Below are positions 4,771-44,383 of a stretch of 64,000 nt of DNA, in pieces. The stretch comes from Syntrophales bacterium (GTDB lineage Bacteria > Desulfobacterota > Syntrophia > Syntrophales > UBA2210). A model generated the notes under the pieces. That model ran no database searches. It had not been told where the DNA came from and was given only the letters and a program-made list of their open reading frames with translations. How positions within the stretch are numbered: the stretch's first letter is position 1; each line of letters starts with the position of its first letter. The position numbers and the translations under genes are program-made. The stretch covers positions 1,241 to 65,240 of the forward strand of contig DAISYQ010000012.1 of NCBI GenBank assembly GCA_036825195.1. Reading direction: 5' to 3'.

Positions 4771-6966
4771 ATGAATACGAATGAAGAAAAACGACGCCGC
4801 AGAGAACGAATTGCAATAGTAGTAGTCATAGCTATCATCATTGTTCTCACCTATATAGAAAGCAACCTTTCCAGCATGGATGTCCTGTTACCGATATCAA
4901 ACGAAGTGCTGATATTCGGCCTGATTAATATCAACCTTATCCTCGTTATTCTCCTTATTTTCCTTATTTCAAGAAATCTGACCAAACTCATATTTGAACG
5001 GAGAAGGGGGGTCCTGGGATCGAAGCTCAGGACAAAGCTGGTCGTAGCCTTTATGAGTCTCTCTCTGATACCTACGATCACGCTTCTCCTGGTCTCCATT
5101 CAATTCCTTTCATATAGCGTGGACAGCTGGTTCGACACGAAGATGGGCCGGGCATTCAATCTGTCTCTTGAGGTCGCTCAGGATTACTACCAGCAATTTT
5201 CCGACAACGCGAAATACTATGCGCAACAGATCGGGTCCGAAATAACCGACAACAAGTTATATGAGAATGAGCAGACAGAGTATCTGAAGGCTTTTTTGAC
5301 GCAGAGGCAGAAATATTTTAATCTTGGGTCCATAACCGTTCGCTTCGATAACCGTGAGGGAGAACTGTTTCTCAAGGACCCGGGCAATCCCGATATCTTA
5401 CCCTCTCAATTTTCTCCCAAGGTTTTGGAAGATGTCTTTATGGGAAAAAATCTTTCAATCGTGCAGTCTGTCGGGGGGGGAGATATGGTAAGTGGCATAG
5501 CTCCGGTATATTCAAATCTCAGCCCCAAGGAAGTTCTGGGAATCATAGCCGTCAGTTATTATATAGACAAGATCTTGAGTGAGAAGATGTCTATTATCTC
5601 GAGAACTTCCGAAGAGTACGAACAGCTCAGACTGTTAAAAAATCCGATAAAGTTCAGTTACATTATCACCCTCTTCATCGTGACCCTCCTGATCATCTTT
5701 TCCTCGATGTGGTTTGGCCTTTTCCTGGCAAAGGGAATTACCGTTCCCATCCAGGAGCTTGCTGAGGCAACCCATGAAGTTGCCCACGGCAATCTTGATT
5801 ACCACATAGATGTTCTGGCGGAAGACGAGATAGGAGTCCTGGCGGATTCCTTTAATCAGATGACGAAAGATCTCAAGACAAGCAGTCTCGAGCTGGAACA
5901 GGTCAATGTGGACCTCAAGCAACGCGGGAAATACATAGAGACAGTGCTTCGCAATGTTTCAGCCGGTGTTGTTTCCATCGACAGAGACGATGTAGTCAGC
6001 ACAATAAACAATGCCGCTGAAAAGATGCTGGATATCAAAAGGGAGGAGATCATAGGCAGGAAATATGGAGATGTCTTGAGCCCGGAACATATGATTATGG
6101 TACGAGGACTTCGGGATGAGTTGACTTCGAGTGATAGTGGTTTTGTGGAGAGACAGATTCAATTGACGGTCAGAGATAAGGTGATTGTGATTTTGGTATC
6201 GGCGACGCTTCTGAGAGGGGATGATAACAACTATATGGGTGTGGTGGCCGTCTTTGAAGATCTGACCCAGCTTCAGAAGACTGAGCGTATCGCCGCGTGG
6301 AGAGAAGCTGCAAAGAGGATAGCACATGAAATAAAAAATCCTCTGACGCCCGTCAGATTGAGCGCAGAGAGGTTACAACGGAAATATGGAGATAAGATAG
6401 AAGAAAAAACAGATTCTGTGTTTCACGAATGTACGCGGACCATAATCGGTCAAGTGGATGTCTTACAGAATCTGGTCAATGAATTTTCGCGATTCGCGAG
6501 ATTGCCTGTGACAAATCCATCCCCGAATGATCTGAATGCGGTGGTTGAAGACTCCGTAATCCTTTTCCAAGATGCTCACAAAGAGGTGGCTTTCGAATTC
6601 AGGAAAGACACCAGTGTGCCCGTATTGAATATTGATGCGGAGCAGATCAAGCGGGTAATGGTCAATCTCTTGGATAACGCGGTTGCAGCCGTGTCATCGT
6701 TGAACCGCAAGGGAAAGGTTGAAATCAGCACCTATTATGATAAGAAGCACAGCAAAGTCACGGTAGATGTCGGAGACAACGGACCCGGCATTTCACCGGA
6801 GAACAAGAAGAAACTGTTTGAACCCTACTTTTCCACCAAAAAGACGGGGACGGGACTCGGGCTTGTCATTGTCAGTTCAATCATGTCCGACCATAACGGT
6901 TCTGTAACCGTAGCGGATAATATACGGGGAGGGACGATCGTATCCATTGAATTGCCTGTTGTATAG
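4771..6966 (+). CDS. membrane sensor histidine kinase with HAMP and PAS domains (NtrY-like)
   Basis: 731-aa ORF with N-terminal multi-TM region, HAMP-like linker, PAS region, H-box HEIKNPLTPV, N-box LLDNAV, and G-boxes DNGPGI and GTGLGL. Confidence 0.9.
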   Translation: MNTNEEKRRRRERIAIVVVIAIIIVLTYIESNLSSMDVLLPISNEVLIFGLININLILVILLIFLISRNLTKLIFERRRGVLGSKLRTKLVVAFMSLSLIPTITLLLVSIQFLSYSVDSWFDTKMGRAFNLSLEVAQDYYQQFSDNAKYYAQQIGSEITDNKLYENEQTEYLKAFLTQRQKYFNLGSITVRFDNREGELFLKDPGNPDILPSQFSPKVLEDVFMGKNLSIVQSVGGGDMVSGIAPVYSNLSPKEVLGIIAVSYYIDKILSEKMSIISRTSEEYEQLRLLKNPIKFSYIITLFIVTLLIIFSSMWFGLFLAKGITVPIQELAEATHEVAHGNLDYHIDVLAEDEIGVLADSFNQMTKDLKTSSLELEQVNVDLKQRGKYIETVLRNVSAGVVSIDRDDVVSTINNAAEKMLDIKREEIIGRKYGDVLSPEHMIMVRGLRDELTSSDSGFVERQIQLTVRDKVIVILVSATLLRGDDNNYMGVVAVFEDLTQLQKTERIAAWREAAKRIAHEIKNPLTPVRLSAERLQRKYGDKIEEKTDSVFHECTRTIIGQVDVLQNLVNEFSRFARLPVTNPSPNDLNAVVEDSVILFQDAHKEVAFEFRKDTSVPVLNIDAEQIKRVMVNLLDNAVAAVSSLNRKGKVEISTYYDKKHSKVTVDVGDNGPGISPENKKKLFEPYFSTKKTGTGLGLVIVSSIMSDHNGSVTVADNIRGGTIVSIELPVV

Positions 6967-29475: not shown

Positions 29476-29515
29476 ACGTTACTATAAATAATATATGGTA
29501 GAGAGGGGGAATAAT

Positions 29516-30709
29516 ATGAAGATCGGAAAGAAATTGGTTGCAGTCGCACTGACGGTTTTCTGTATATCGGTACTGGCCGTAGACGGTTCCGCCGGAGCTC
29601 CCGGCTTCGACGACAAGGAGATCAGGATTGCTCAGTGGGGGCCCCAGACGGGACCCGCGGCGCCGTGGGGTTCGGTGGCGCGCGGTTCCTCTGTGCTGTT
29701 CAACCTGGTGAACGAGGAGGGGGGTATCCACGGGAGAACGATCAAGTATTTTATCCGGGATGATCAGTACAACCCCGCCCTCTGCAAGGCGGCGGTCAAG
29801 GAACTGGTGGAACGCAAGGGGATCTTTGCCTTTATAGGTGGTGTGTCGGGTGCAAGCGGTATGGCTGTGAAAGACTATCTCGCGAAGAACAAGGTTATCT
29901 GGGTTGGCCCGGCCACATCGATCAACGAATACGTGTTCCCGACCCAGAAATACCTCTTTGCCGATTATCCGCTTTTTGAGGACGAGGCGAGCATTATCAC
30001 GAAATATCTCGTGGAGAAGATGGGATTCAAGAAGATCGGATTTTTCTACCAGAACGACTCATACGGCAAGAGCGGTCTGGCGGGCTGCAAACAGCGGCTG
30101 GATGCTCTGGGAATGAAGCTGGTTGAGGAGATCCCCGTCGAACCCGGCGAGAAGGATCTCGCGTCCCAGATGCTGAAGTTCAAGGACTCCGGTGCGGAGG
30201 CGGTGATCATGTGGGTCAATCCGACGACGGCCGTCATCGCGCTGAAGACCTGTGCCACCATCGGGTATAAGCCGCAATGGGTATCGTGCGATGCTCTTTC
30301 CGATTACCCGCTCATGTACAAGATATCGGGCGGTCTGTGGGAGGGGGTTATCACCGGTGCCTTCGCCCTGCCGCCCGACTCGACGAATCCCCTGATGGTC
30401 AAGTACCATGAGGCACAGAAGAGGATGGCCCCCGAAGAGCGATGGGGAACGTTCTATTTTGCAGGGATCCTCTTCGCCGAACCGCTTGTTGAGGCACTGA
30501 AGCAGGTTGGACCGAACCTGAGCACGGAGGCCTGCCTGAAGGCATTGAACTCTATTAAAGGATTTCAGGGAATAGGACCGCCGATCACCTGGAGTGAGGA
30601 TAGTCATCAGGGAACGGATTCCATCATGATTCAGCAGTGCGGATCGGGCGCGTCCTACATAACCCTGCAGGACTGGACATCAAACGACCTGGCAACGTGG
30701 AAGAAATAA
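29516..30709 (+). CDS. ABC transporter periplasmic substrate-binding protein (type I PBP, Liv family), paralog 1
   Basis: Signal peptide MKIGKKLVAVALTVFCISVLAV. Liv-type PBP length and motifs (IRIAQWGPQTGPAAPWG, FIGGVSGASGMAV). Confidence 0.88.
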   Translation: MKIGKKLVAVALTVFCISVLAVDGSAGAPGFDDKEIRIAQWGPQTGPAAPWGSVARGSSVLFNLVNEEGGIHGRTIKYFIRDDQYNPALCKAAVKELVERKGIFAFIGGVSGASGMAVKDYLAKNKVIWVGPATSINEYVFPTQKYLFADYPLFEDEASIITKYLVEKMGFKKIGFFYQNDSYGKSGLAGCKQRLDALGMKLVEEIPVEPGEKDLASQMLKFKDSGAEAVIMWVNPTTAVIALKTCATIGYKPQWVSCDALSDYPLMYKISGGLWEGVITGAFALPPDSTNPLMVKYHEAQKRMAPEERWGTFYFAGILFAEPLVEALKQVGPNLSTEACLKALNSIKGFQGIGPPITWSEDSHQGTDSIMIQQCGSGASYITLQDWTSNDLATWKK

Positions 30710-30736
30710 GTTCCACAAACTCAAGGAGGGAATATT

Positions 30737-31933
30737 ATGAAGATCAGAACAACATTGTTCGCGGCAGCGCTGGCGATTGTCTGTATCTTTGTACTGGCTG
30801 TTGACAACTTCGCCGGCAGCCCCGGTTTCGACGACAAGGAGATCCGGATAGCGCAGTGGGGACCCCAGACAGGTCCCGCTGCCCCATGGGGTTCGGTAGC
30901 ACGTGGCCCCTCGGTGCTGTTCAACCTGGTGAACGAAGAGGGAGGTATCCACGGGAGAACGATCAAGTATTTTATCCGGGATGATCAGTACAATCCCGCT
31001 CTCTGCAAAGCGGCGGTCAAAGAACTGGTCGAGCGCAAAGGGATCTTTGCCTTTGTGGGTGGTGTGTCGAGCGCGAGCGGTATGGCTGTGAAAGATTATC
31101 TCGCGAAGAACAAGGTTATCTGGGTGGGTCCGGCCACGTCGATTAATGAATACGTGTTCCCGACCCAGAAATACCTCTTTGCCGATTATCCGCTCTATCA
31201 GGACGAGGCGAGCATTATCACGAAATATCTTGTGGGGGAAATGGGGTTCAAGAAAATCGGATTTTTCTATCAGAACGACTCATACGGTAAGAACGGTCTG
31301 GCGGGCTGTAAGCAGCGGCTGGATGCCCTGGGAATGAAACTGGTGGAGGAGATCCCCGTTGAACCGGGTGAAAAGGACCTCGCGTCCCAGATGCTGAAGT
31401 TCAAGAACTCCGGTGCGGAAACAGTGATCATGTGGGTCAATCCGACGACGGCCGTCATCGCGCTGAAGACCTGTGCCACCATCGGGTATAAGCCGCAGTG
31501 GGTTTCTTCCAGTACGCTTTCCGATTATCCGCTCATGTACAAGATATCGGGCGGTCTGTGGGAGGGCGTTATCACCGGCGCGTTTGCCTTGCCGCCAGAT
31601 TCCACGAACCCTCTGATGGTGAAGTATCATGAGGCACAGAAAAGGATGGCCCCTGAAGAGCGATGGGGGACATTCTATTTTGGAGGCATCTTCTTTTCCG
31701 AGCCGATAGTTGAAGCCCTGAAACGAGCAGGGCCGGACCTGAGTACGGAAGCCTGCCTGAAGGCATTGAATTCCCTTGAGAATTTTCAGGGGATAGGACC
31801 GCCGATCACCTGGAGTGAAGATAGTCATCAGGGGACCGATTCCATCATGATTCAAAAGTGCGGACCGGGAGCTTCCTACATAACCATGCAGGACTGGACA
31901 TCCAACGACCTGGCGACATGGAAGAAGAAATAG
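30737..31933 (+). CDS. ABC transporter periplasmic substrate-binding protein, paralog 2
   Basis: 398-aa ORF. After the signal peptide I count 26 substitutions and no indels relative to paralog 1. Confidence 0.88.
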   Translation: MKIRTTLFAAALAIVCIFVLAVDNFAGSPGFDDKEIRIAQWGPQTGPAAPWGSVARGPSVLFNLVNEEGGIHGRTIKYFIRDDQYNPALCKAAVKELVERKGIFAFVGGVSSASGMAVKDYLAKNKVIWVGPATSINEYVFPTQKYLFADYPLYQDEASIITKYLVGEMGFKKIGFFYQNDSYGKNGLAGCKQRLDALGMKLVEEIPVEPGEKDLASQMLKFKNSGAETVIMWVNPTTAVIALKTCATIGYKPQWVSSSTLSDYPLMYKISGGLWEGVITGAFALPPDSTNPLMVKYHEAQKRMAPEERWGTFYFGGIFFSEPIVEALKRAGPDLSTEACLKALNSLENFQGIGPPITWSEDSHQGTDSIMIQKCGPGASYITMQDWTSNDLATWKKK

Positions 31934-35472: not shown

Positions 35473-36402
35473 TTACAGATCTTCGGGCGTGAAGGCCACC
35501 ACGTCGTCGATCGATTCGCTGTTCGTGAAGATCATCGCCAGCCGGTCCACACCCAGCGCTATCCCCGAGGCTTCGGGCATGGCGGAAAGTTCCGCTAAAA
35601 ACTTTTCCGGCATGGGGTACACCACATTGCCGGAAGCGCGTCGGTTTTCCTGCTCCTCTTCAAACCGCGCCCTCTGTTCGGCCGCGTCGGTCAGTTCCGA
35701 GAAGGCGTTGGCCAGTTCAAGACCGCCCATATACAGTTCAAACCGCTCCGCCACGTCAGGGTCCGTCTTCTTGACCCTCGCGAGCGCCCCGAGAGACACC
35801 GGATAATCGTACAGGAAGACCGGCCGTTGCAGTTCTTTGAACCGCGGTTCGATCTCTTCGACCATGATTTCGTCAAAGCGATTGCTTCTCAGCGCATCTT
35901 CCAGAGATACGGAGGCATAACGACTGAAGGCGTCCCGTACGGCGATTCTCTCCCACGGTGAACGGATGTCGATCTTCTCCCCGCGGTACTCGACGGCCCC
36001 CTCATGGCCGAGACTCCGTGCGATGTGGATGATAAGCTCTTCACACTCTTCCATCATGGTGCAGTAGCCGATGCCGCTCCGATACCATTCGAGGAGGGTA
36101 AATTCGGAGATATGGAGCGATCCCCGCTCTCCACTGCGAAAGCACCTGGCAATCTGGAATATGCGCGGGTATCCGGCGGCCAGCAGGCGCTTCATGCACA
36201 GTTCGGGTGATGTGTGAAGGTACCAGCCGTCGGAGGAGATGGCGTCGATGTTGCATTCCGGAGCGGGGGCGGGAATCCTGGAAGGTGTTTCCACTTCCAG
36301 ATACTCCCTGTCGGTAAAAAACTCGCGGATGATCCGGATCATCGCGGCACGGGTATGAAGATCGTTTTGTTTACGTGAAAGTTTCCAGTTTCTGTCAACC
36401 AT
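35473..36402 (-). CDS. epmA: elongation factor P--(R)-beta-lysine ligase
   Basis: 309-aa class II LysRS-like catalytic core lacking an anticodon domain. It is colinear by eye with E. coli EpmA (RAAMIRIIREFFTDREYLEVETP, FTLLEWY, ERFELYMGGLELANAFSELTD, GIALGVDRL). Confidence 0.9.
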   Translation of the reverse strand: MVDRNWKLSRKQNDLHTRAAMIRIIREFFTDREYLEVETPSRIPAPAPECNIDAISSDGWYLHTSPELCMKRLLAAGYPRIFQIARCFRSGERGSLHISEFTLLEWYRSGIGYCTMMEECEELIIHIARSLGHEGAVEYRGEKIDIRSPWERIAVRDAFSRYASVSLEDALRSNRFDEIMVEEIEPRFKELQRPVFLYDYPVSLGALARVKKTDPDVAERFELYMGGLELANAFSELTDAAEQRARFEEEQENRRASGNVVYPMPEKFLAELSAMPEASGIALGVDRLAMIFTNSESIDDVVAFTPEDL

Positions 36403-36445
36403 TATTTACAAAGCTCCAATCTTCCGGCTTGTTCGGTGGTAATTT
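36261..36445 (-). repeat. direct repeat copy 1 (intact epmA 5' end plus leader)
   Basis: Matches 39861-40075. About 127 of 143 positions are identical over 36261-36403 versus 39861-40003 (hand alignment). Weaker similarity continues into the leader. Confidence 0.85.
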
Positions 36446-39746: not shown

Positions 39747-39860
39747 ATATTGGTAGATTAACCGGCTGTCAAGCTTTTTCTATGTACGCTCATCCGGATT
39801 TTTCTGAAGAATCTGTGGGGGAATCAGCGCGCAAGAGACGGGGAAACTCATGTATCTATG

Positions 39861-40075
39861 GAGCGGGGGAGGGAATTTTGGAGGGCGTTTCCACTTACGG
39901 ATACTCCCTATCGGTAAAAAACTCGAGGATGATCCGGATCATCGCGGCGCGGGTGTAAATGTCGTTTTGTTTACGTGCAAGTTTCCAGTTTCTGTCAATC
40001 ATTTTCAGTTGTGAGTCCAATAGTTCTATATTTGTAAACTCCAATTTTCCGGATAACTCGGGTTAATAATTAAAA
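39861..40075 (-). repeat. direct repeat copy 2 (epmA 5' fragment plus leader remnant)
   Basis: See copy 1. This copy carries a 26-nt insertion relative to copy 1 just upstream of the ATG. Confidence 0.85.
39895..40002 (-). pseudogene. epmA 5' stub (35 codons then TAA)
   Basis: Translates to MIDRNWKLARKQNDIYTRAAMIRIILEFFTDREYP*. The intact EpmA reads MVDRNWKLSRKQNDLHTRAAMIRIIREFFTDREYLEVETP... Confidence 0.85.
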
Positions 40076-40164
40076 TTAATGAATCAGTTCCAAGGGGTAA
40101 AATCATAATGCTACCATAATGCTTTAAGTTTGTATCATGAGAAAATGGATAACTATTTGAATAT

Positions 40165-40689
40165 TCAAGATGATATATAACTAACTCTTAAATTTTGGGG
40201 GGCATCAGGTGGACGGAGGAGTGGCTCGGGAGAAGATAAAACATTTTCGAGATATTCATTTGTAATGATAAATGATTCATTTGATAAGACTTGACTTTTT
40301 TCATATGTGTTTAATCTACTTAAAAAATGTAGAGGTAAAAAAAGTACCGAAGAGATAATCAAACATGATAACAAAGTTGGAGCCATTGCTATAAATAAAG
40401 TTTTTATTTTTAATAAGAATGATATGCTAGATAGGTCAAATTTACTATATATGTTTTTCCGTGTTGATTGATGAACTCTTCTTTTATCAAACTCCTGTTC
40501 TATCGCCTCACTTATTTTTTCATTATCATGAGTATTCTGTGAGTTATATCTTCCAATTGATTTACATAAAAGAAAAGATTCATTATCAATTGTTAGATAA
40601 TTCAATAAGCTTCTATAACATTGAATACCCCAATAGCAACCTGAACATGCCAATAAGACATAATATATGACTTTATTCTGTATATTCAT
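40165..40689 (-). CDS. small membrane protein, lipoprotein-like N-terminus, Pro-rich tail (third gene of the ExbB/ExbD-like operon)
   Basis: 174-aa ORF starting 1 nt after the upstream stop. Features are MNIQNKVIYYVLLAC (lipobox-like), a TM at about residues 96-123, and the tail SSPEPLLRPPDAPQ. I recognise no family. Confidence 0.5.
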   Translation of the reverse strand: MNIQNKVIYYVLLACSGCYWGIQCYRSLLNYLTIDNESFLLCKSIGRYNSQNTHDNEKISEAIEQEFDKRRVHQSTRKNIYSKFDLSSISFLLKIKTLFIAMAPTLLSCLIISSVLFLPLHFLSRLNTYEKSQVLSNESFIITNEYLENVLSSPEPLLRPPDAPQNLRVSYISS

Positions 40690-40690
40690 C

Positions 40691-41191
40691 TTACTGAAAA
40701 TATGTTTTTATTTCTTGTCTGATATTTTTTGCTAACCATTCTTGTACAATATAACATAAATGATAATTGGGTGTTGTTTTACTCTTCATTAATACTAAAA
40801 TTACCTTTTCTGAATTTTTAAATGATTCGATCTCTCTTTTTAAAATATCTATTATAGATTGACTAGATACAGGGAAGTCCCTTATTTTTTCTCCACTCTT
40901 GATTATGGAGAGAATGTCGTACCCATTTTTCTGATTAATAACGAGAACAGTGATATCATCAGGTAATGTTGATGGTGGACTTTGTCCATTTCCGACCTGA
41001 CGAACTTCCAATTGATATGCATTTTCATACTCTGACACTGGTTGAATACCAAAAATAACAGAAGCGATAATAAGAGCAAATGATAATAATGTAAAAAGAT
41101 CCACTAACGATTCAAAATTATCATCAGATTCTTGAAATAGAGAAAACTGTGTTTTATTTAGTCTACTCTGCATTATGAATAATTTTTTCAT
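40691..41191 (-). CDS. ExbD/TolR-like single-pass membrane protein
   Basis: 166-aa ORF with TM ESLVDLFTLLSFALIIASVIFG carrying an Asp at the cytoplasmic edge. The periplasmic domain shows an ExbD-like pattern (ITVLVINQKNGYDIL...EKVILVLMKSKTTPNYH). An alternative start lies at 41173. It overlaps the upstream gene. Confidence 0.55.
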   Translation of the reverse strand: MKKLFIMQSRLNKTQFSLFQESDDNFESLVDLFTLLSFALIIASVIFGIQPVSEYENAYQLEVRQVGNGQSPPSTLPDDITVLVINQKNGYDILSIIKSGEKIRDFPVSSQSIIDILKREIESFKNSEKVILVLMKSKTTPNYHLCYIVQEWLAKNIRQEIKTYFQ

Positions 41192-42251
41192 CTAAAACAG
41201 GGGTTTGATTATTTATAGAATTTTCGATTTTAAAAAAATAAATATCAGCCCGAATTAATATTTTATCGTTCAGCTTTTTATGTAATATTGATGTTAATCT
41301 TATGAGCAGTCCAACAAATGTAGATATCATTGCTATTTGAATAGCTTCAAAAAAACTACTTATACCTATATCTCCTAACTCTCTTATAGATGGGTGTAAA
41401 GCAGCAATTAATGATGAAATAGTTAATGTGAATCCAACAGCTGGTCCCAAGACCTGTAAAAATCTGAGCCAATTATCTTTTCTCACATAATGCATTCCAA
41501 AATTATCTTTTGCGCTCACAATGTTTGATGGTGGTAATAGCGATTCTCCATTATCAGGAAAATACTTTTCATTGATATATCTTTCAAATCTTACATTAGA
41601 AAGTAATATGAATTTACAGTTAAATAATAGATTTGTAACTGTGACTAGAAAAAAGAGGGTAAATATTGTTAAAATGTAATTACTTATCGAGTCATTATAT
41701 TTTAATAGCAGTAAGGCTAAAGACTCACGAATATATCTACGATCTTCGTATGTTTTGTTTCCCGATAGTATATAGTTATCAAAAAATTCTTTAAGATCAA
41801 TCTGTTGCCCATCGATTGTAACGTTTATAATTTCTGTTGGACTGTATAGTTGATTCTTGGTGTTTATAATGATTCTAAATCCTTCACTATCATCATATTG
41901 ATCAAGGTTTAATTTATCAGTATAAAGATTTTTTAACGTTAATGTTTTGACATTTTGTTCAATCCTTTTTTCTCGATAATCATTTTTATTGTTACTATTT
42001 ACACGCCTCATCGCATAGAAAAAAACAAAGGTTTCATGTTTGAAGTTTATTGAACACTCTCTAAAATTATTCGGTAAATTCAGTGTTATTTTTTTTGTAG
42101 TTATTTTTATAGAAATATTGTTTGACCAAAGAGGATAAAGAATGAATGCTATTGAGGCAAATATGATGCAGAGAGAGATGACATATTTATTTCTACATAT
42201 GGATTTTATTTTTTCTAAAAAATCACCAATGTTTCTCTCATCGGTTGACAT
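41163..42251 (-). CDS. MotA/TolQ/ExbB-like proton-channel family protein with a large N-terminal loop domain
   Basis: 362-aa ORF with RBS AAGAGG 7 nt upstream and four predicted TMs. The C-terminal TM pair LGPAVGFTLTISSLIAAL / FFEAIQIAMISTFVGLLIRL resembles the MotA_ExbB signature. Confidence 0.55.
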   Translation of the reverse strand: MSTDERNIGDFLEKIKSICRNKYVISLCIIFASIAFILYPLWSNNISIKITTKKITLNLPNNFRECSINFKHETFVFFYAMRRVNSNNKNDYREKRIEQNVKTLTLKNLYTDKLNLDQYDDSEGFRIIINTKNQLYSPTEIINVTIDGQQIDLKEFFDNYILSGNKTYEDRRYIRESLALLLLKYNDSISNYILTIFTLFFLVTVTNLLFNCKFILLSNVRFERYINEKYFPDNGESLLPPSNIVSAKDNFGMHYVRKDNWLRFLQVLGPAVGFTLTISSLIAALHPSIRELGDIGISSFFEAIQIAMISTFVGLLIRLTSILHKKLNDKILIRADIYFFKIENSINNQTPVLDEKIIHNAE

Positions 42252-42630
42252 AATTAACCTCTTTTAAATAATAGGAAAACAACGATTTAAGAATTTATTT
42301 TGTAGGTTAACTTCAATATTAATGTTGTTTTGTAGAATTGAGTGAAGACCGTTCCTTACTTTTTAGTGAGTTACAGTGAAAAGCTATATAAACAAAGTAA
42401 ATCAAGTCATTATATCAATTGGGACATTAAGGGGACACAATACATAATTTGAATTAAGTGTTATGTCCTCAGAATTGCGCCTAATTGCGAATTACCCTCT
42501 TGTGAAGAACTGACTCTATAACTTCTTTTTCATCTATCATCTTTCTCTCTTTTTATTAACATAACGACAAGCTTACCAGCCCGCGTGACAAGGCCGTCGT
42601 GGGTCAGGTGAAACGCCAAGTTAGTGAAAT

Positions 42631-42918
42631 TTAGCCTTTCCAAGTATCATGAAGCCATTCAAATTTTTTCGTTTGTCCGAAGCCTGCCCAATCAGTATTA
42701 CTTTCTATTGCGAGCACTATCATATCAACGTCTGGTATCAATTCCTGTACTTTGTCTCGGATGCTTGCGACATTCCAAGTATTAGTACTGTCAGTTAACA
42801 ACCATGCATCACTGAACCAATGCCAATAACCCATGTGGTCCTTAAAATAATTTGAGACAGTATTTTGTTGTATTTCTGTTGCATTATCTATAACGAGGAT
42901 GAAACGTTTCTTATTCAT
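42631..42918 (-). CDS. small Trp-rich soluble protein of unknown function
   Basis: The ORF is open to 42939. ATG 42918 lies 6 nt after GGAGAGGAGG and overlaps the stop of the upstream 2-TM gene. I recognise no family. Confidence 0.5.
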   Translation of the reverse strand: MNKKRFILVIDNATEIQQNTVSNYFKDHMGYWHWFSDAWLLTDSTNTWNVASIRDKVQELIPDVDMIVLAIESNTDWAGFGQTKKFEWLHDTWKG

Positions 42919-43294
42919 GATCATCCTCCTCTCCTGCAATCAAGGACTTAGGTTCGTTGCTTAAGGTATACAGAGTCTTTTCGTCTCTTAGTCCGGTCAG
43001 GTTATCTCCTACCAACCCACGTTCAATAGCCATCTTGGACAGTGTGTAACTTTCTGATCTTAATGCATCTGGGCTTTTGATTAAGAAATATATATAAGCG
43101 CCTAAAAACGTAGTCAAAACAACAGCAAGCGCACTAGCGATTCCAATCAAGATCCATGAAGGAGCACCTGCTATTGCTGTAATCGGAATGCTTGTTAAAA
43201 GCATTGCTATCACCCATTGTAGGGCATGCAAGGCTGTTGACCTAGCACCTTTAGCACTAGCCTCAGAAAAAAAACTATGAATAATATTTGTCAT
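42911..43294 (-). CDS. small 2-TM membrane protein of unknown function
   Basis: ATG 43294 is preceded by GAAGGAG. Two hydrophobic helices are followed by an acidic C-terminal tail. The ORF track extends it to 43366. Confidence 0.5.
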   Translation of the reverse strand: MTNIIHSFFSEASAKGARSTALHALQWVIAMLLTSIPITAIAGAPSWILIGIASALAVVLTTFLGAYIYFLIKSPDALRSESYTLSKMAIERGLVGDNLTGLRDEKTLYTLSNEPKSLIAGEEDDHE

Positions 43295-43483
43295 AGAAAC
43301 TCCTTCGAACACCAACAAATTATTATATTGAACAATATAACTTCGAAAGAAAAAACCCTGAAACACTTTCCTTTATGTAACATTTGTATTTTCTGTCAGG
43401 ATATCACACAACATGGAATTGTATGCCGTTAACAGGGTGCCTTAACATGCTGGAGATACCTGAATTCGGATAGTCTTCCTGAT

Positions 43484-43819: not shown

Positions 43820-44383
43820 TTATTCTTTGACGCGGGTAAGGTACTCGCCGGTACGCGTGTCGATTCTGATCTTTTCGCCTTCTTCGATGAAGGGTGGTAC
43901 CAGAAGGCTGTAGCCTGTTTCGACTTCGATCGGTTTTGTCCTTCCCGTAACCGAGTCCCCCTTTGCCCAGGGTTCCGCTTTGGTGACGGTGAGGTCAACG
44001 AAATTGGGGAGAGTTACGCCGAGTGGCTTATCTCCGAAAAAGAGGATTTCCACGTCCAGATTGTCGAGCAGGAAGTTTTTTGCGTCCCCCAGCTGATCTT
44101 CTGTCAGGAAAACCTGTTCGTATGTCTCCGTGTCCATGAAACAGTATTTCCCGCCTTCTTCGTAAAGGTACTGCATCTTTTTTTCCTGCAGATTGGCGGG
44201 TTCGAAGGTATCCACGGAACGGTAGGTGCGTTCAAACTGGTTTCCGTTGATCATGTTTCTGAGTTTACATCGATAAAGAGATTGTCCCTTGCCGGGTTTT
44301 GAAAACTCAAAATCAACTATTACATATGGATCACCATCGATCTGTATCTTCAGGTTTTTTCTCAAGTCGCTTGCATTATACAT
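43820..44383 (-). CDS. efp: elongation factor P
   Basis: 187-aa ORF. MYNASDLRKNLKIQIDGDPYVIVDFEFSKPGKGQSLYRCKLRN contains the KPGKG loop lysine targeted by EpmA. Confidence 0.96.
   Translation of the reverse strand: MYNASDLRKNLKIQIDGDPYVIVDFEFSKPGKGQSLYRCKLRNMINGNQFERTYRSVDTFEPANLQEKKMQYLYEEGGKYCFMDTETYEQVFLTEDQLGDAKNFLLDNLDVEILFFGDKPLGVTLPNFVDLTVTKAEPWAKGDSVTGRTKPIEVETGYSLLVPPFIEEGEKIRIDTRTGEYLTRVKE

Follow-up and report, generated by a model that had tools for sequence, protein, structure and literature searches.

We analysed a 64,000-nucleotide (nt) stretch of DNA from a Syntrophales bacterium (contig DAISYQ010000012.1; hereafter, the window), in which three closely packed genes on the minus strand, called A, B and C here, form a compact cassette. 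Positions are counted from the first letter of the window, and the coordinates of the trio are given in that frame. The cassette probably encodes a rare, undescribed branch of the ExbB/TolQ-type proton-driven membrane motors. In the list of open reading frames (ORFs), gene A occupies 42251-41163 and encodes 362 amino acids (aa), gene B occupies 41191-40691 (166 aa) and gene C occupies 40689-40165 (174 aa). Genes A and B share 29 nt, and a single nucleotide separates B from C; this arrangement matches the one described in an earlier reading of the same DNA from its letters alone (the original prediction). Gene B has an alternative start at Met7 (41173), which is the choice of public gene calls; with this start, the product has 160 aa and the overlap with A is 11 nt. 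A Shine-Dalgarno-like AAGAGG is located 7 nt upstream of the ATG of A, and the starts of B and C are positioned for translational coupling.

The GC content of the trio is 0.286, compared with 0.507 in the remainder of the window (28.6% vs 50.7%, close to the value of about 30% originally noted for the trio in GC-richer surroundings) and roughly 51% in the host genome. When GC content was calculated in 400-nt windows, it was 0.26-0.31 across 40000-42400 and 0.47-0.58 in the flanks. At the base composition of the trio, a stop codon is expected about every 12 codons, and the chance probability of the observed ORF lengths is ~4e-14 for A (362 codons), ~7e-7 for B (166 codons) and ~3e-7 for C (174 codons). 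Homologues elsewhere were found for A, B and C alike.

An AT-rich leader or promoter region of about 315-380 nt (42252-42566, minus strand) precedes gene A. Because a terminator-like hairpin (minus strand, 42584-42567) follows the 3′ end of the upstream ORF, the trio can be regarded as its own transcription unit. No convincing sigma-70 site was found in the leader, where the promoter scan gave fewer sites than shuffled controls, and an Rfam scan of the leader and the surrounding AT-rich island returned nothing real.

Proteins A and B

Protein A is an ExbB/TolQ-like, pentamer-type subunit (gene at 41163-42251, minus strand). It has an extra N-terminal transmembrane helix (TM) at residues 23-42, three core TMs at residues 191-216, 262-285 and 298-323, and a short cytoplasmic C-terminal helix. 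Hydropathy and the AlphaFold model agree on this layout, and both reproduce the one originally proposed. The AlphaFold2 model, which was built on a 58-sequence alignment, has a pLDDT of 91.6 and a pTM of 0.77. Between the extra TM and the core, residues 47-169 (41745-42113, minus strand) form a predicted periplasmic domain of ~120 aa, which is modelled as a beta-sandwich-like fold with seven to eight strands and with pLDDT mostly above 90. Only weak Foldseek matches were obtained for this domain, namely C2, CBM32 and IFT25-type sandwiches (probability 0.4-0.84).

The placement of A in the MotA/TolQ/ExbB superfamily, which had been suggested from its C-terminal helices, holds, and the nearest relatives are ExbB and TolQ. 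In the window copy, Pfam PF01618 matches residues 260-321, the two C-terminal TMs, with 15.6 bits (E=0.014). The same family is matched by 8/8 close homologues of A (best E=2.6e-7), and it is listed for several family members in public pre-computed annotations. When the model of A was compared with the PDB by Foldseek, ranks 1-38 were all ExbB/TolQ chains (probability 0.9-1.0, E from 3e-3 to 3e-2). The TM-scores were modest (0.28-0.38) because of the extra domain of A. MotA, ZorA and GldL chains were absent from the top 50 matches. Thus, A is a divergent ExbB/TolQ-type member of the superfamily, in both family and fold. One public metagenome-assembled genome (MAG) labels an A protein "MotA/TolQ/ExbB proton channel family protein"; therefore, proteins of this kind were already known.

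The conserved helix pair of A, encoded at 41283-41468 on the minus strand, consists of TM2 (262-285) and TM3 (298-323) of the core. In the 58-sequence alignment, catalytic-type positions of this pair are invariant: G269, P270, G273, T277, A307, T311, G314, L315 and R318, among which T277 and T311 are the pore-lining threonines. Mapping by hhalign places P270, G273 and T277 of A on P141, G144 and T148 of ExbB (T145 of TolQ), and T311 and G314 of A on T181 and G184 of ExbB (T178 of TolQ). The counterpart of ExbB E176 is Gln or His in the A family. Summed over the 58 sequences, Lys and Arg residues total 213 ahead of the first TM and 122 behind it; the TM1-TM2 loop accounts for 532, the TM2-TM3 loop for 57 and the region past the last TM for 174. 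These counts support a predicted topology in which the N-terminus of A is inside, the beta domain outside and the C-terminus inside.

A second subgroup was observed among the matches to the A-family profile (P0085-P0139). Its members have about 350 aa and match profile positions ~165-335 only, which correspond to the ExbB-like core. The N-terminal periplasmic domain of this subgroup is evidently different, which suggests domain swapping on a shared motor core. The A proteins of L016, L019 and L020, three of the loci described below, are possible members.

Protein B (gene at 40691-41191, minus strand) has a short cytoplasmic head, a trans-pore-type TM at residues 27-48, a disordered linker and a periplasmic domain at residues 80-165 with the order beta-beta-beta-alpha-beta-alpha-beta. 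The AlphaFold model has a pLDDT of 83 overall and above 90 in the TM, where the helix is modelled at residues 21-48, and in the folded domain. The Lys and Arg counts (121 vs 76) place the N-terminus inside. At the cytoplasmic end of the sole TM, a 44-sequence alignment has invariant E27, S28, D31, L32, F33 and T34 (E-S-x-x-D-L-F-T). Asp31 (codon at 41099-41101, minus strand), which is conserved in 44/44 sequences, is the presumed ion-binding aspartate; its position is that of the essential aspartate of ExbD (D25), TolR (D23) and MotB (D32) (PMC12204202).

B had originally been read as an ExbD/TolR-like partner. The architecture, Asp31 and the lack of an OmpA-type domain bear this out, and family membership does not: PF02472 (ExbD/TolR), MotB_plug and OmpA matched 0/44 members of the B family at E<=1, and TolR reached only rank 48 in Foldseek. 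Likewise, no profile match supports the ExbD-like strand pattern once seen in its periplasmic domain. The family has 45 members, none of which carries a Pfam annotation. A search of PDB sequences with the B profile did not find ExbD or TolR chains, and hhalign comparisons with E. coli ExbD (E=0.15) and TolR (E=0.085) were non-significant. Because B combines a partner-type architecture with no ExbD/TolR profile signal, it is a new family with the architecture of the "axle" subunit of 5:2 motors, outside ExbD/TolR by sequence. In Foldseek searches, RNase-H-like folds ranked first (integrase core, YqgF and ribosomal protein S11), and TolR (5by4) was at rank 48 with E=0.024, probability 0.87 and TMt 0.44. 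The idea that B is a nuclease, which these RNase-H-like matches raise, was rejected because the domain lies in the periplasm and lacks conserved acidic residues.

Protein C

Protein C (gene at 40165-40689, minus strand; 174 aa) is a bitopic membrane protein. A cytoplasmic N-terminal region of about 95 aa, which contains C15-x2-C18-YWG...C24, is followed by a TM at residues 95-123 that ends in LFLPLH, a strand-like segment SFIITNEYLEN (139-149), a Pro-rich tail and PPDAPQNLRV (160-169). The region after the TM, which we regard as the putative periplasmic output region, is encoded at 40168-40275 on the minus strand; within it, 40243-40275 encodes the strand motif, and 40168-40233 encodes the Pro-rich tail together with the strand motif at its end.

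Homologues of C are present as the third gene in 11 other loci (mutual blastp values down to 1e-15), and a small third gene lies 3′ of B in every locus that is long enough to show one. Across the 12 loci, the order of motifs is kept: a TM ending in (F/Y)LPL(H), then, about 15 residues on, F-(I/V)-x-T-(E/Q)-(E/D)-F-(I/L)-(E/D)-N, then a Pro-rich stretch, and finally a terminal PPxAPxN(L/V)(R/K)(V/I). P161 and P164 are invariant and P119 is nearly invariant. The protein ends 5-10 residues past the PPxAPxNLRV motif, and no other part of C is as well conserved as the tail. Over the 12 sequences, C has a net charge of +16 ahead of the TM and -13 past it, and this bias places the tail, as judged from charge distribution, outside the cytoplasm. 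The strand motif lies 15-17 residues past the TM; in TolA, SIDAVMVD is found 15 residues past the TM, at a similar spacing.

The central TM and the Pro-rich tail had been recognised correctly from the outset. The lipobox-like VLLAC15 does occur in the sequence. C as a lipoprotein was nevertheless rejected: Cys15 is not conserved, there is no signal peptide, and the homologues in L001, L005 and L009 lack such a Cys or a hydrophobic leader. Cys15 instead belongs to the cytoplasmic CxxC...C motif, the place of which is taken in other clades by CxCxxC...RGxRL. The suspicion that the 3′ end of gene C is truncated or non-native was also rejected. The tail is conserved among homologues across loci, and therefore the GC-rich patch that encodes it is native. 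No match to C was found in Pfam, NCBIfam, PADLOC or PHROGs.

We also observed that CxCxxC followed by RGxRL, in the cytoplasmic N-terminal region of many C homologues (L003, L016, L019 and L022), resembles a small zinc knuckle. The clade of the window has C-x2-C-YWG-x3-C in place of CxCxxC.

Distribution of the cassette and its genomic setting

The same three-gene order, A-B-C, is found again in about 12 independent loci (L001, L003-L009, L016, L019, L020 and L022). The contigs of L007 and L008 are short, so that only A and B fit; L010-L012 come from the same organism as L009, and L016/L017, L020/L021 and L022/L023 are pairs. A decayed cassette was found in L018 (8946-10993), where A is truncated at 266 aa, ahead of its last two TMs, and B at 139 aa; the C-like gene retains the PPAPPSAPTLNLQ ending, and the locus adjoins type IV pilus minor-pilin genes. 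No TonB, TonB-dependent receptor, Tol-Pal, flagellar, Zorya-effector or nuclease genes accompany the cassette in the ~12 loci, in line with what had been noted for the window, and there is no other constant partner.

The neighbours of the cassette are otherwise unrelated between loci. L001 (1946-6549), the closest well-flanked homologous cassette, adjoins a gene for a 931-aa nSTAND1-Mrr_cat protein and a candidate defence pair that PADLOC matches strongly to HEC-02 (E=3.8e-150 and 3.4e-72). Between the cassette and these genes is one for a DDE_3 transposase, and toxin-antitoxin genes (PhdYeFM, BrnT) are farther out. The neighbours are IS66 elements and an RHS toxin in L019, a weak AbiEii-like gene and an RND pump in L020, and a CopG antitoxin in L006. 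L009 has the Rnf complex and YgiQ on one side and acetyltransferase genes on the other, L022 lies in the context of complex I and a rhomboid protease, L003 is near a two-component system and glycoside hydrolases (sugar utilisation), and L016 is near genes for large adhesin-like proteins. Two of these loci have features of their own. In L016, which is from a Verrucomicrobiae MAG, an extra 183-aa gene (5727-6278) with a (KD)n repeat, KDKDKDKD..., lies over the start of A and is not conserved elsewhere. In L022, the rhomboid-family intramembrane protease gene (2073-2969) is directly 3′ of the cassette; this is one occurrence and may be coincidence.

In 8/8 loci with enough flanking DNA, the GC content of the cassette is lower than that of the flanks (for example, 0.214 vs 0.469 in L009 and 0.44 vs 0.585 in L003). 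Thus, the cassette is compositionally foreign and horizontally mobile, as the original prediction had proposed for the window. Two carriers are MAGs labelled archaeal (ANME-1-type and Lokiarchaeota); these host labels are uncertain because the contigs are only 3.3-3.4 kb and may have been binned wrongly. Homologues of A were not found in viral contigs, in the BFVD viral structure library or, by tblastn, in sequenced plasmids and phages, and these data therefore give no evidence of a phage or plasmid vehicle.

The family is rare. A word-indexed search of 5.8 billion clustered proteins recovered 7 homologues of A, and an exhaustive search of 1.84 billion proteins with the A profile recovered 193 representatives. 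Mainstream ExbB, TolQ and MotA proteins are very numerous. Therefore, the 193 matches indicate that the mainstream proteins were not recovered and that the A clade is isolated. PADLOC models, including those of ZorA and ZorB, gave no match in 58 A or 44 B members, which agrees with the earlier view that the trio is not a known Zorya or other defence system. A weak match of A to the PADLOC model PDC-S33 (E=0.0088) was dismissed as chance because it is confined to the window copy among the 58 A-family members. More generally, NCBIfam, PADLOC and PHROGs contained no meaningful match for A, B or C. The literature and profile libraries that were searched do not contain the cassette as a unit, the periplasm-heavy architecture of A, the B family or the C family with its terminal motif.

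In the window, the cassette lies in a low-GC island (~40004 to ~43750, from the composition profile) together with an unrelated two-gene module. The edges of the island are a 5′ fragment of epmA and efp (ORF at 43820-44383). A 144-nt direct repeat, with copies that are 89% identical at 36260-36403 and 39860-40003, is derived from the 5′ end of epmA. The intact epmA (genX/poxA-like) gene is at 35473-36402 on the minus strand, and the second copy is a stop-interrupted epmA fragment (MIDRNWKLARKQNDIYTRAAMIRIILEFFTDREYP followed by a stop). The two copies flank an rrf2-cydA-cydB block, and the AT-rich island starts directly after the second copy, which ends at 40003. From this layout, efp and epmA were probably once adjacent and are now split by two separate insertions. 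The recombinase debris formerly reported near the trio could not be found at the island borders by a six-frame Pfam scan, and ARAGORN detected no tRNA gene there.

The two-gene module is located at 42631-43366 on the minus strand. One of its products, a protein with two TMs (likely start Met25, 42911-43294), matches the phage family phrog_27377, the function of which is unknown, with E=5.9e-13, and it shows a very weak SLATT-like match besides. The overlapping partner gene (42631-42918) encodes a soluble protein of ~95 aa without matches. The module could be a small toxin/immunity or defence pair. It had been named as a candidate output of the motor; we rejected it as part of the trio system because no homologues of the module lie beside the trio in other loci and because the terminator-like hairpin stands between them.

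Inspection by eye of the region ~26-58 kb of the window identified genes of a Liv-type ABC transporter and an acyl-CoA synthetase, epmA, cydAB, rrf2, efp and a type II secretion/pilus-like cluster; genes for TonB or a TonB-dependent receptor and genes of the Tol-Pal, flagellar or Zorya systems could not be recognised there in this way. Within the ABC transporter operon, 29495-31933 contains genes for two tandem, near-identical Liv-type periplasmic substrate-binding paralogues (404 and 398 aa).

Possible assembly and role of the cassette

The core of A is nearest in structure to ExbB and TolQ, and it has the Pro/Gly/Thr signature of TM2 and the Thr/Gly signature of TM3 in common with them. B resembles ExbD and TolR in its short cytoplasmic head, its single TM with an Asp near the cytoplasmic end, its compact domain, modelled as a periplasmic alpha/beta fold, and the lack of an OmpA domain, and the genes are adjacent and positioned for translational coupling as in the ExbB-ExbD and TolQ-TolR pairs. 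A departs from ExbB and TolQ, however, in its additional TM at the N-terminus, its periplasmic beta-sandwich (about 120 aa) and its far smaller cytoplasmic part, and E176 of ExbB is replaced by Gln or His. Unlike ExbD and TolR, B has no PF02472 signal. In contrast to the Ton and Tol systems, the cassette is mobile, rare and AT-rich and contains no TonB, TolA, TonB-dependent receptor or TolB-Pal genes. Most of its non-membrane mass would be extracytoplasmic (the beta-sandwich of A, the alpha/beta domain of B and the tail of C), unlike that of ExbB, TolQ, MotA and ZorA.

With ZorAB of the Zorya system, the cassette shares a non-flagellar motor pair of the MotA/ExbB superfamily on mobile or variable DNA, and an envelope-sensor role is conceivable for it as well. 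The tail of ZorA is a long cytoplasmic coiled coil that reaches ~700 Angstrom and is essential. In contrast, only about 40 aa follow the last TM of A, and they form no long coiled-coil tail. B (166 aa) differs from ZorB and MotB in its fold and in the absence of an OmpA-like peptidoglycan-binding domain; no effector genes of the ZorC/D/E/F/G type are present in the ~12 loci, no HMM of ZorA or ZorB matched, and the structural neighbours of A are ExbB and TolQ, not MotA-like proteins. Another comparison is offered by the non-flagellar MotAB relatives called "generic ion transporters" (GIT; PMC12505986), which are a heterogeneous group of A/B pairs that likewise combine an Exb/Tol scaffold with functionally uncharacterised extra domains and a compact B. 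The GIT survey (PMC12505986) does not include an N-terminal TM with a periplasmic beta-sandwich on A, the new B domain or an obligatory small third subunit, and the present family is far rarer than the GIT relatives.

The layout of C parallels the plan of TolA and TonB (PMC12204202). In that plan, the TM is followed by a "motor-box" strand, which contacts the dimeric subunit, and then by a Pro-rich spacer, and the target is bound through strand addition. In the manner of TonB, TolA and the recently proposed vWA transducers (PMC12204202), C has a TM, a strand-like motif at motor-box-like spacing, a Pro-rich segment and a terminal element that would suit beta-strand addition, and it is always encoded beside the motor genes. 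On account of this layout and of the TolA-box spacing, we propose a transducer role for C. We therefore favour, with somewhat better than even confidence, the reading that the cassette encodes a self-contained, horizontally mobile, ion-driven 5:2 motor on the ExbB/TolQ-ExbD/TolR side, equipped with a miniature transducer of the TonB/TolA type. In such an assembly, A would form a pentameric ring, and the TM helices of two B subunits would occupy its pore, with Asp31 opposite the ring of invariant T277 and T311 of A. Protonation and deprotonation of Asp31, driven by the proton motive force (PMF), would rotate A relative to B. The TM of C may dock against the outer face of the A ring, and the strand about 16 residues past this TM would touch the periplasmic domain of B in the fashion of the TolA/TonB motor box. 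The short Pro-rich tail would then offer its terminal beta-strand (PPxAPxNLRV) to a target through strand addition, and C would act as a miniature transducer linking the motor to a periplasmic or envelope target.

Several observations weigh against this reading. The PF01618 score of the window A (15.6 bits) is below the gathering threshold of 22.9, and searches of PDB sequences with A and B, both single-sequence and profile, returned nothing relevant. The hhalign comparisons of A with a single ExbB or TolQ sequence were weak (E=0.011 and 0.0023), and the alignments were therefore used for residue mapping only. As far as its sequence can tell, B carries no ExbD/TolR signal at all, and its domain is closer to the RNase-H-type fold than to TolR in the Foldseek ranking. 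The TM of C is central (95-123) and not N-terminal, and it lacks the SHLS motif; His121, at the outer end of the TM, is confined to the clade of the window. There is no globular C-terminal domain of the TonB_C or TolA_C kind in C, for which no Pfam domain was found. Unlike TonB and TolA, C has its TM after about 95 cytoplasmic aa, and its periplasmic part would have only about 50-60 aa, in which a short strand motif replaces the globular domain. Because C lacks these hallmarks of TonB and TolA, the likeness is one of mechanism and not of family membership. The 5:2 stoichiometry, the rotation and every subunit contact are drawn by analogy with the established ExbBD, TolQR, MotAB and ZorAB assemblies (PMC9389320), and the docking of C and its work as a transducer are likewise postulated by analogy.

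Other explanations have to be weighed against this one. Many bacteria have extra exbBD paralogues away from tonB, and ExbB and TolQ are the nearest structures to A; the cassette might accordingly be an ordinary Ton/Tol motor paralogue that uses a TonB/TolA-type protein and outer-membrane partners encoded elsewhere, with C as a minor accessory. We consider this improbable. The profile search of 1.84 billion proteins recovered only 193 representatives of A, which implies that the very numerous mainstream ExbB and TolQ proteins were not among them; moreover, B has no ExbD/TolR profile match, the extra TM and periplasmic domain of A are not seen in ExbB or TolQ, and C is strictly co-inherited with A and B. 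The cassette is also mobile and of foreign composition, and it occurs on contigs binned, with uncertainty, to archaeal MAGs, where no Ton/Tol partner is expected. It is similarly very unlikely that the trio is inert cargo, that is, xenogeneic AT-rich DNA that is silenced or decaying in this host. Its GC content far below that of the host, the lack of a clear promoter and the truncated A and B of the related locus L018 would fit such a fate, but the three ORFs are intact at a composition where a stop is expected about every 12 codons, and their key residues are conserved. Translation signals are also in place, namely a good Shine-Dalgarno sequence for A and an arrangement of B and C that suits translational coupling.

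A third explanation is a stand-alone anti-phage or anti-plasmid system that works from the outside in. In this scheme, an invader that perturbs the envelope would be detected through the periplasmic domains of A, B and C, and the channel would unplug; the effect would be an ion leak (PMF collapse and abortive infection) or a signal to the Cys-containing cytoplasmic domain of C, as in a minimal ZorAB analogue without a nuclease. A defence role is plausible, since the cassette is rare, patchy, self-contained and foreign in composition in every locus measured. L001, with its HEC-02 pair, nSTAND-Mrr protein, transposase and toxin-antitoxin genes, is the only clear defence island; weaker hints come from L020 (weak AbiEii), L019 (IS66 and RHS toxin) and L006 (CopG antitoxin), and the two-gene module in the island of the window has a two-TM protein that matches a phage protein family. 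On the other hand, PADLOC models match 0 of 58 A and 44 B members, the contexts of L009, L022, L003 and the window itself are housekeeping ones, searches of sequenced plasmids, phages and viral contigs did not recover the cassette, and it has no effector domain. The context sample comprises about 10 independent loci, and therefore no enrichment statistic is possible. This particular outside-in system is possible, and we hold to it only tentatively.

Under the preferred reading of a mobile motor with a miniature transducer, we infer that the cassette most likely serves an accessory function on mobile DNA that is directed at the envelope, such as defence or exclusion. A more far-reaching picture, which we put forward as doubtful speculation, is that of a portable machine, an ExbB/TolQ-derived rotary motor with nearly all of its working parts in the periplasm. 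Five beta-sandwiches of A, possibly glycan- or wall-binding, would anchor the ring while the B dimer and the tail of C move. Alone and with no enzyme, such a machine might provide envelope immunity or exclusion by disrupting an incoming phage or pilus or by collapsing the PMF, and it would move across distant lineages, possibly including archaea.

To our knowledge, the 5:2 ion-driven motors characterised so far are all understood from what they drive, namely the flagellum, Ton, Tol-Pal, gliding/T9SS or Zorya. Recent papers say expressly that more systems driven by 5:2 motors await discovery (PMC12505986, PMC12204202). The family-level definitions given here, that is, the invariant motifs of A, B and C, are new to databases, and Pfam, NCBIfam, PADLOC and PHROGs have no entry for B or C. 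As a self-contained mobile motor of three genes, with a new B-type subunit and a proposed transducer whose periplasmic part would have ~55 residues, the cassette is perhaps the smallest tractable system for studying how an ExbB-type pentamer turns its rotation into useful work. Should the cassette serve in defence or exclusion, an effector-less mechanism that acts at the envelope would be added to prokaryotic immunity; if its role is a different one, the cassette would point to an unknown PMF-dependent process of the envelope.

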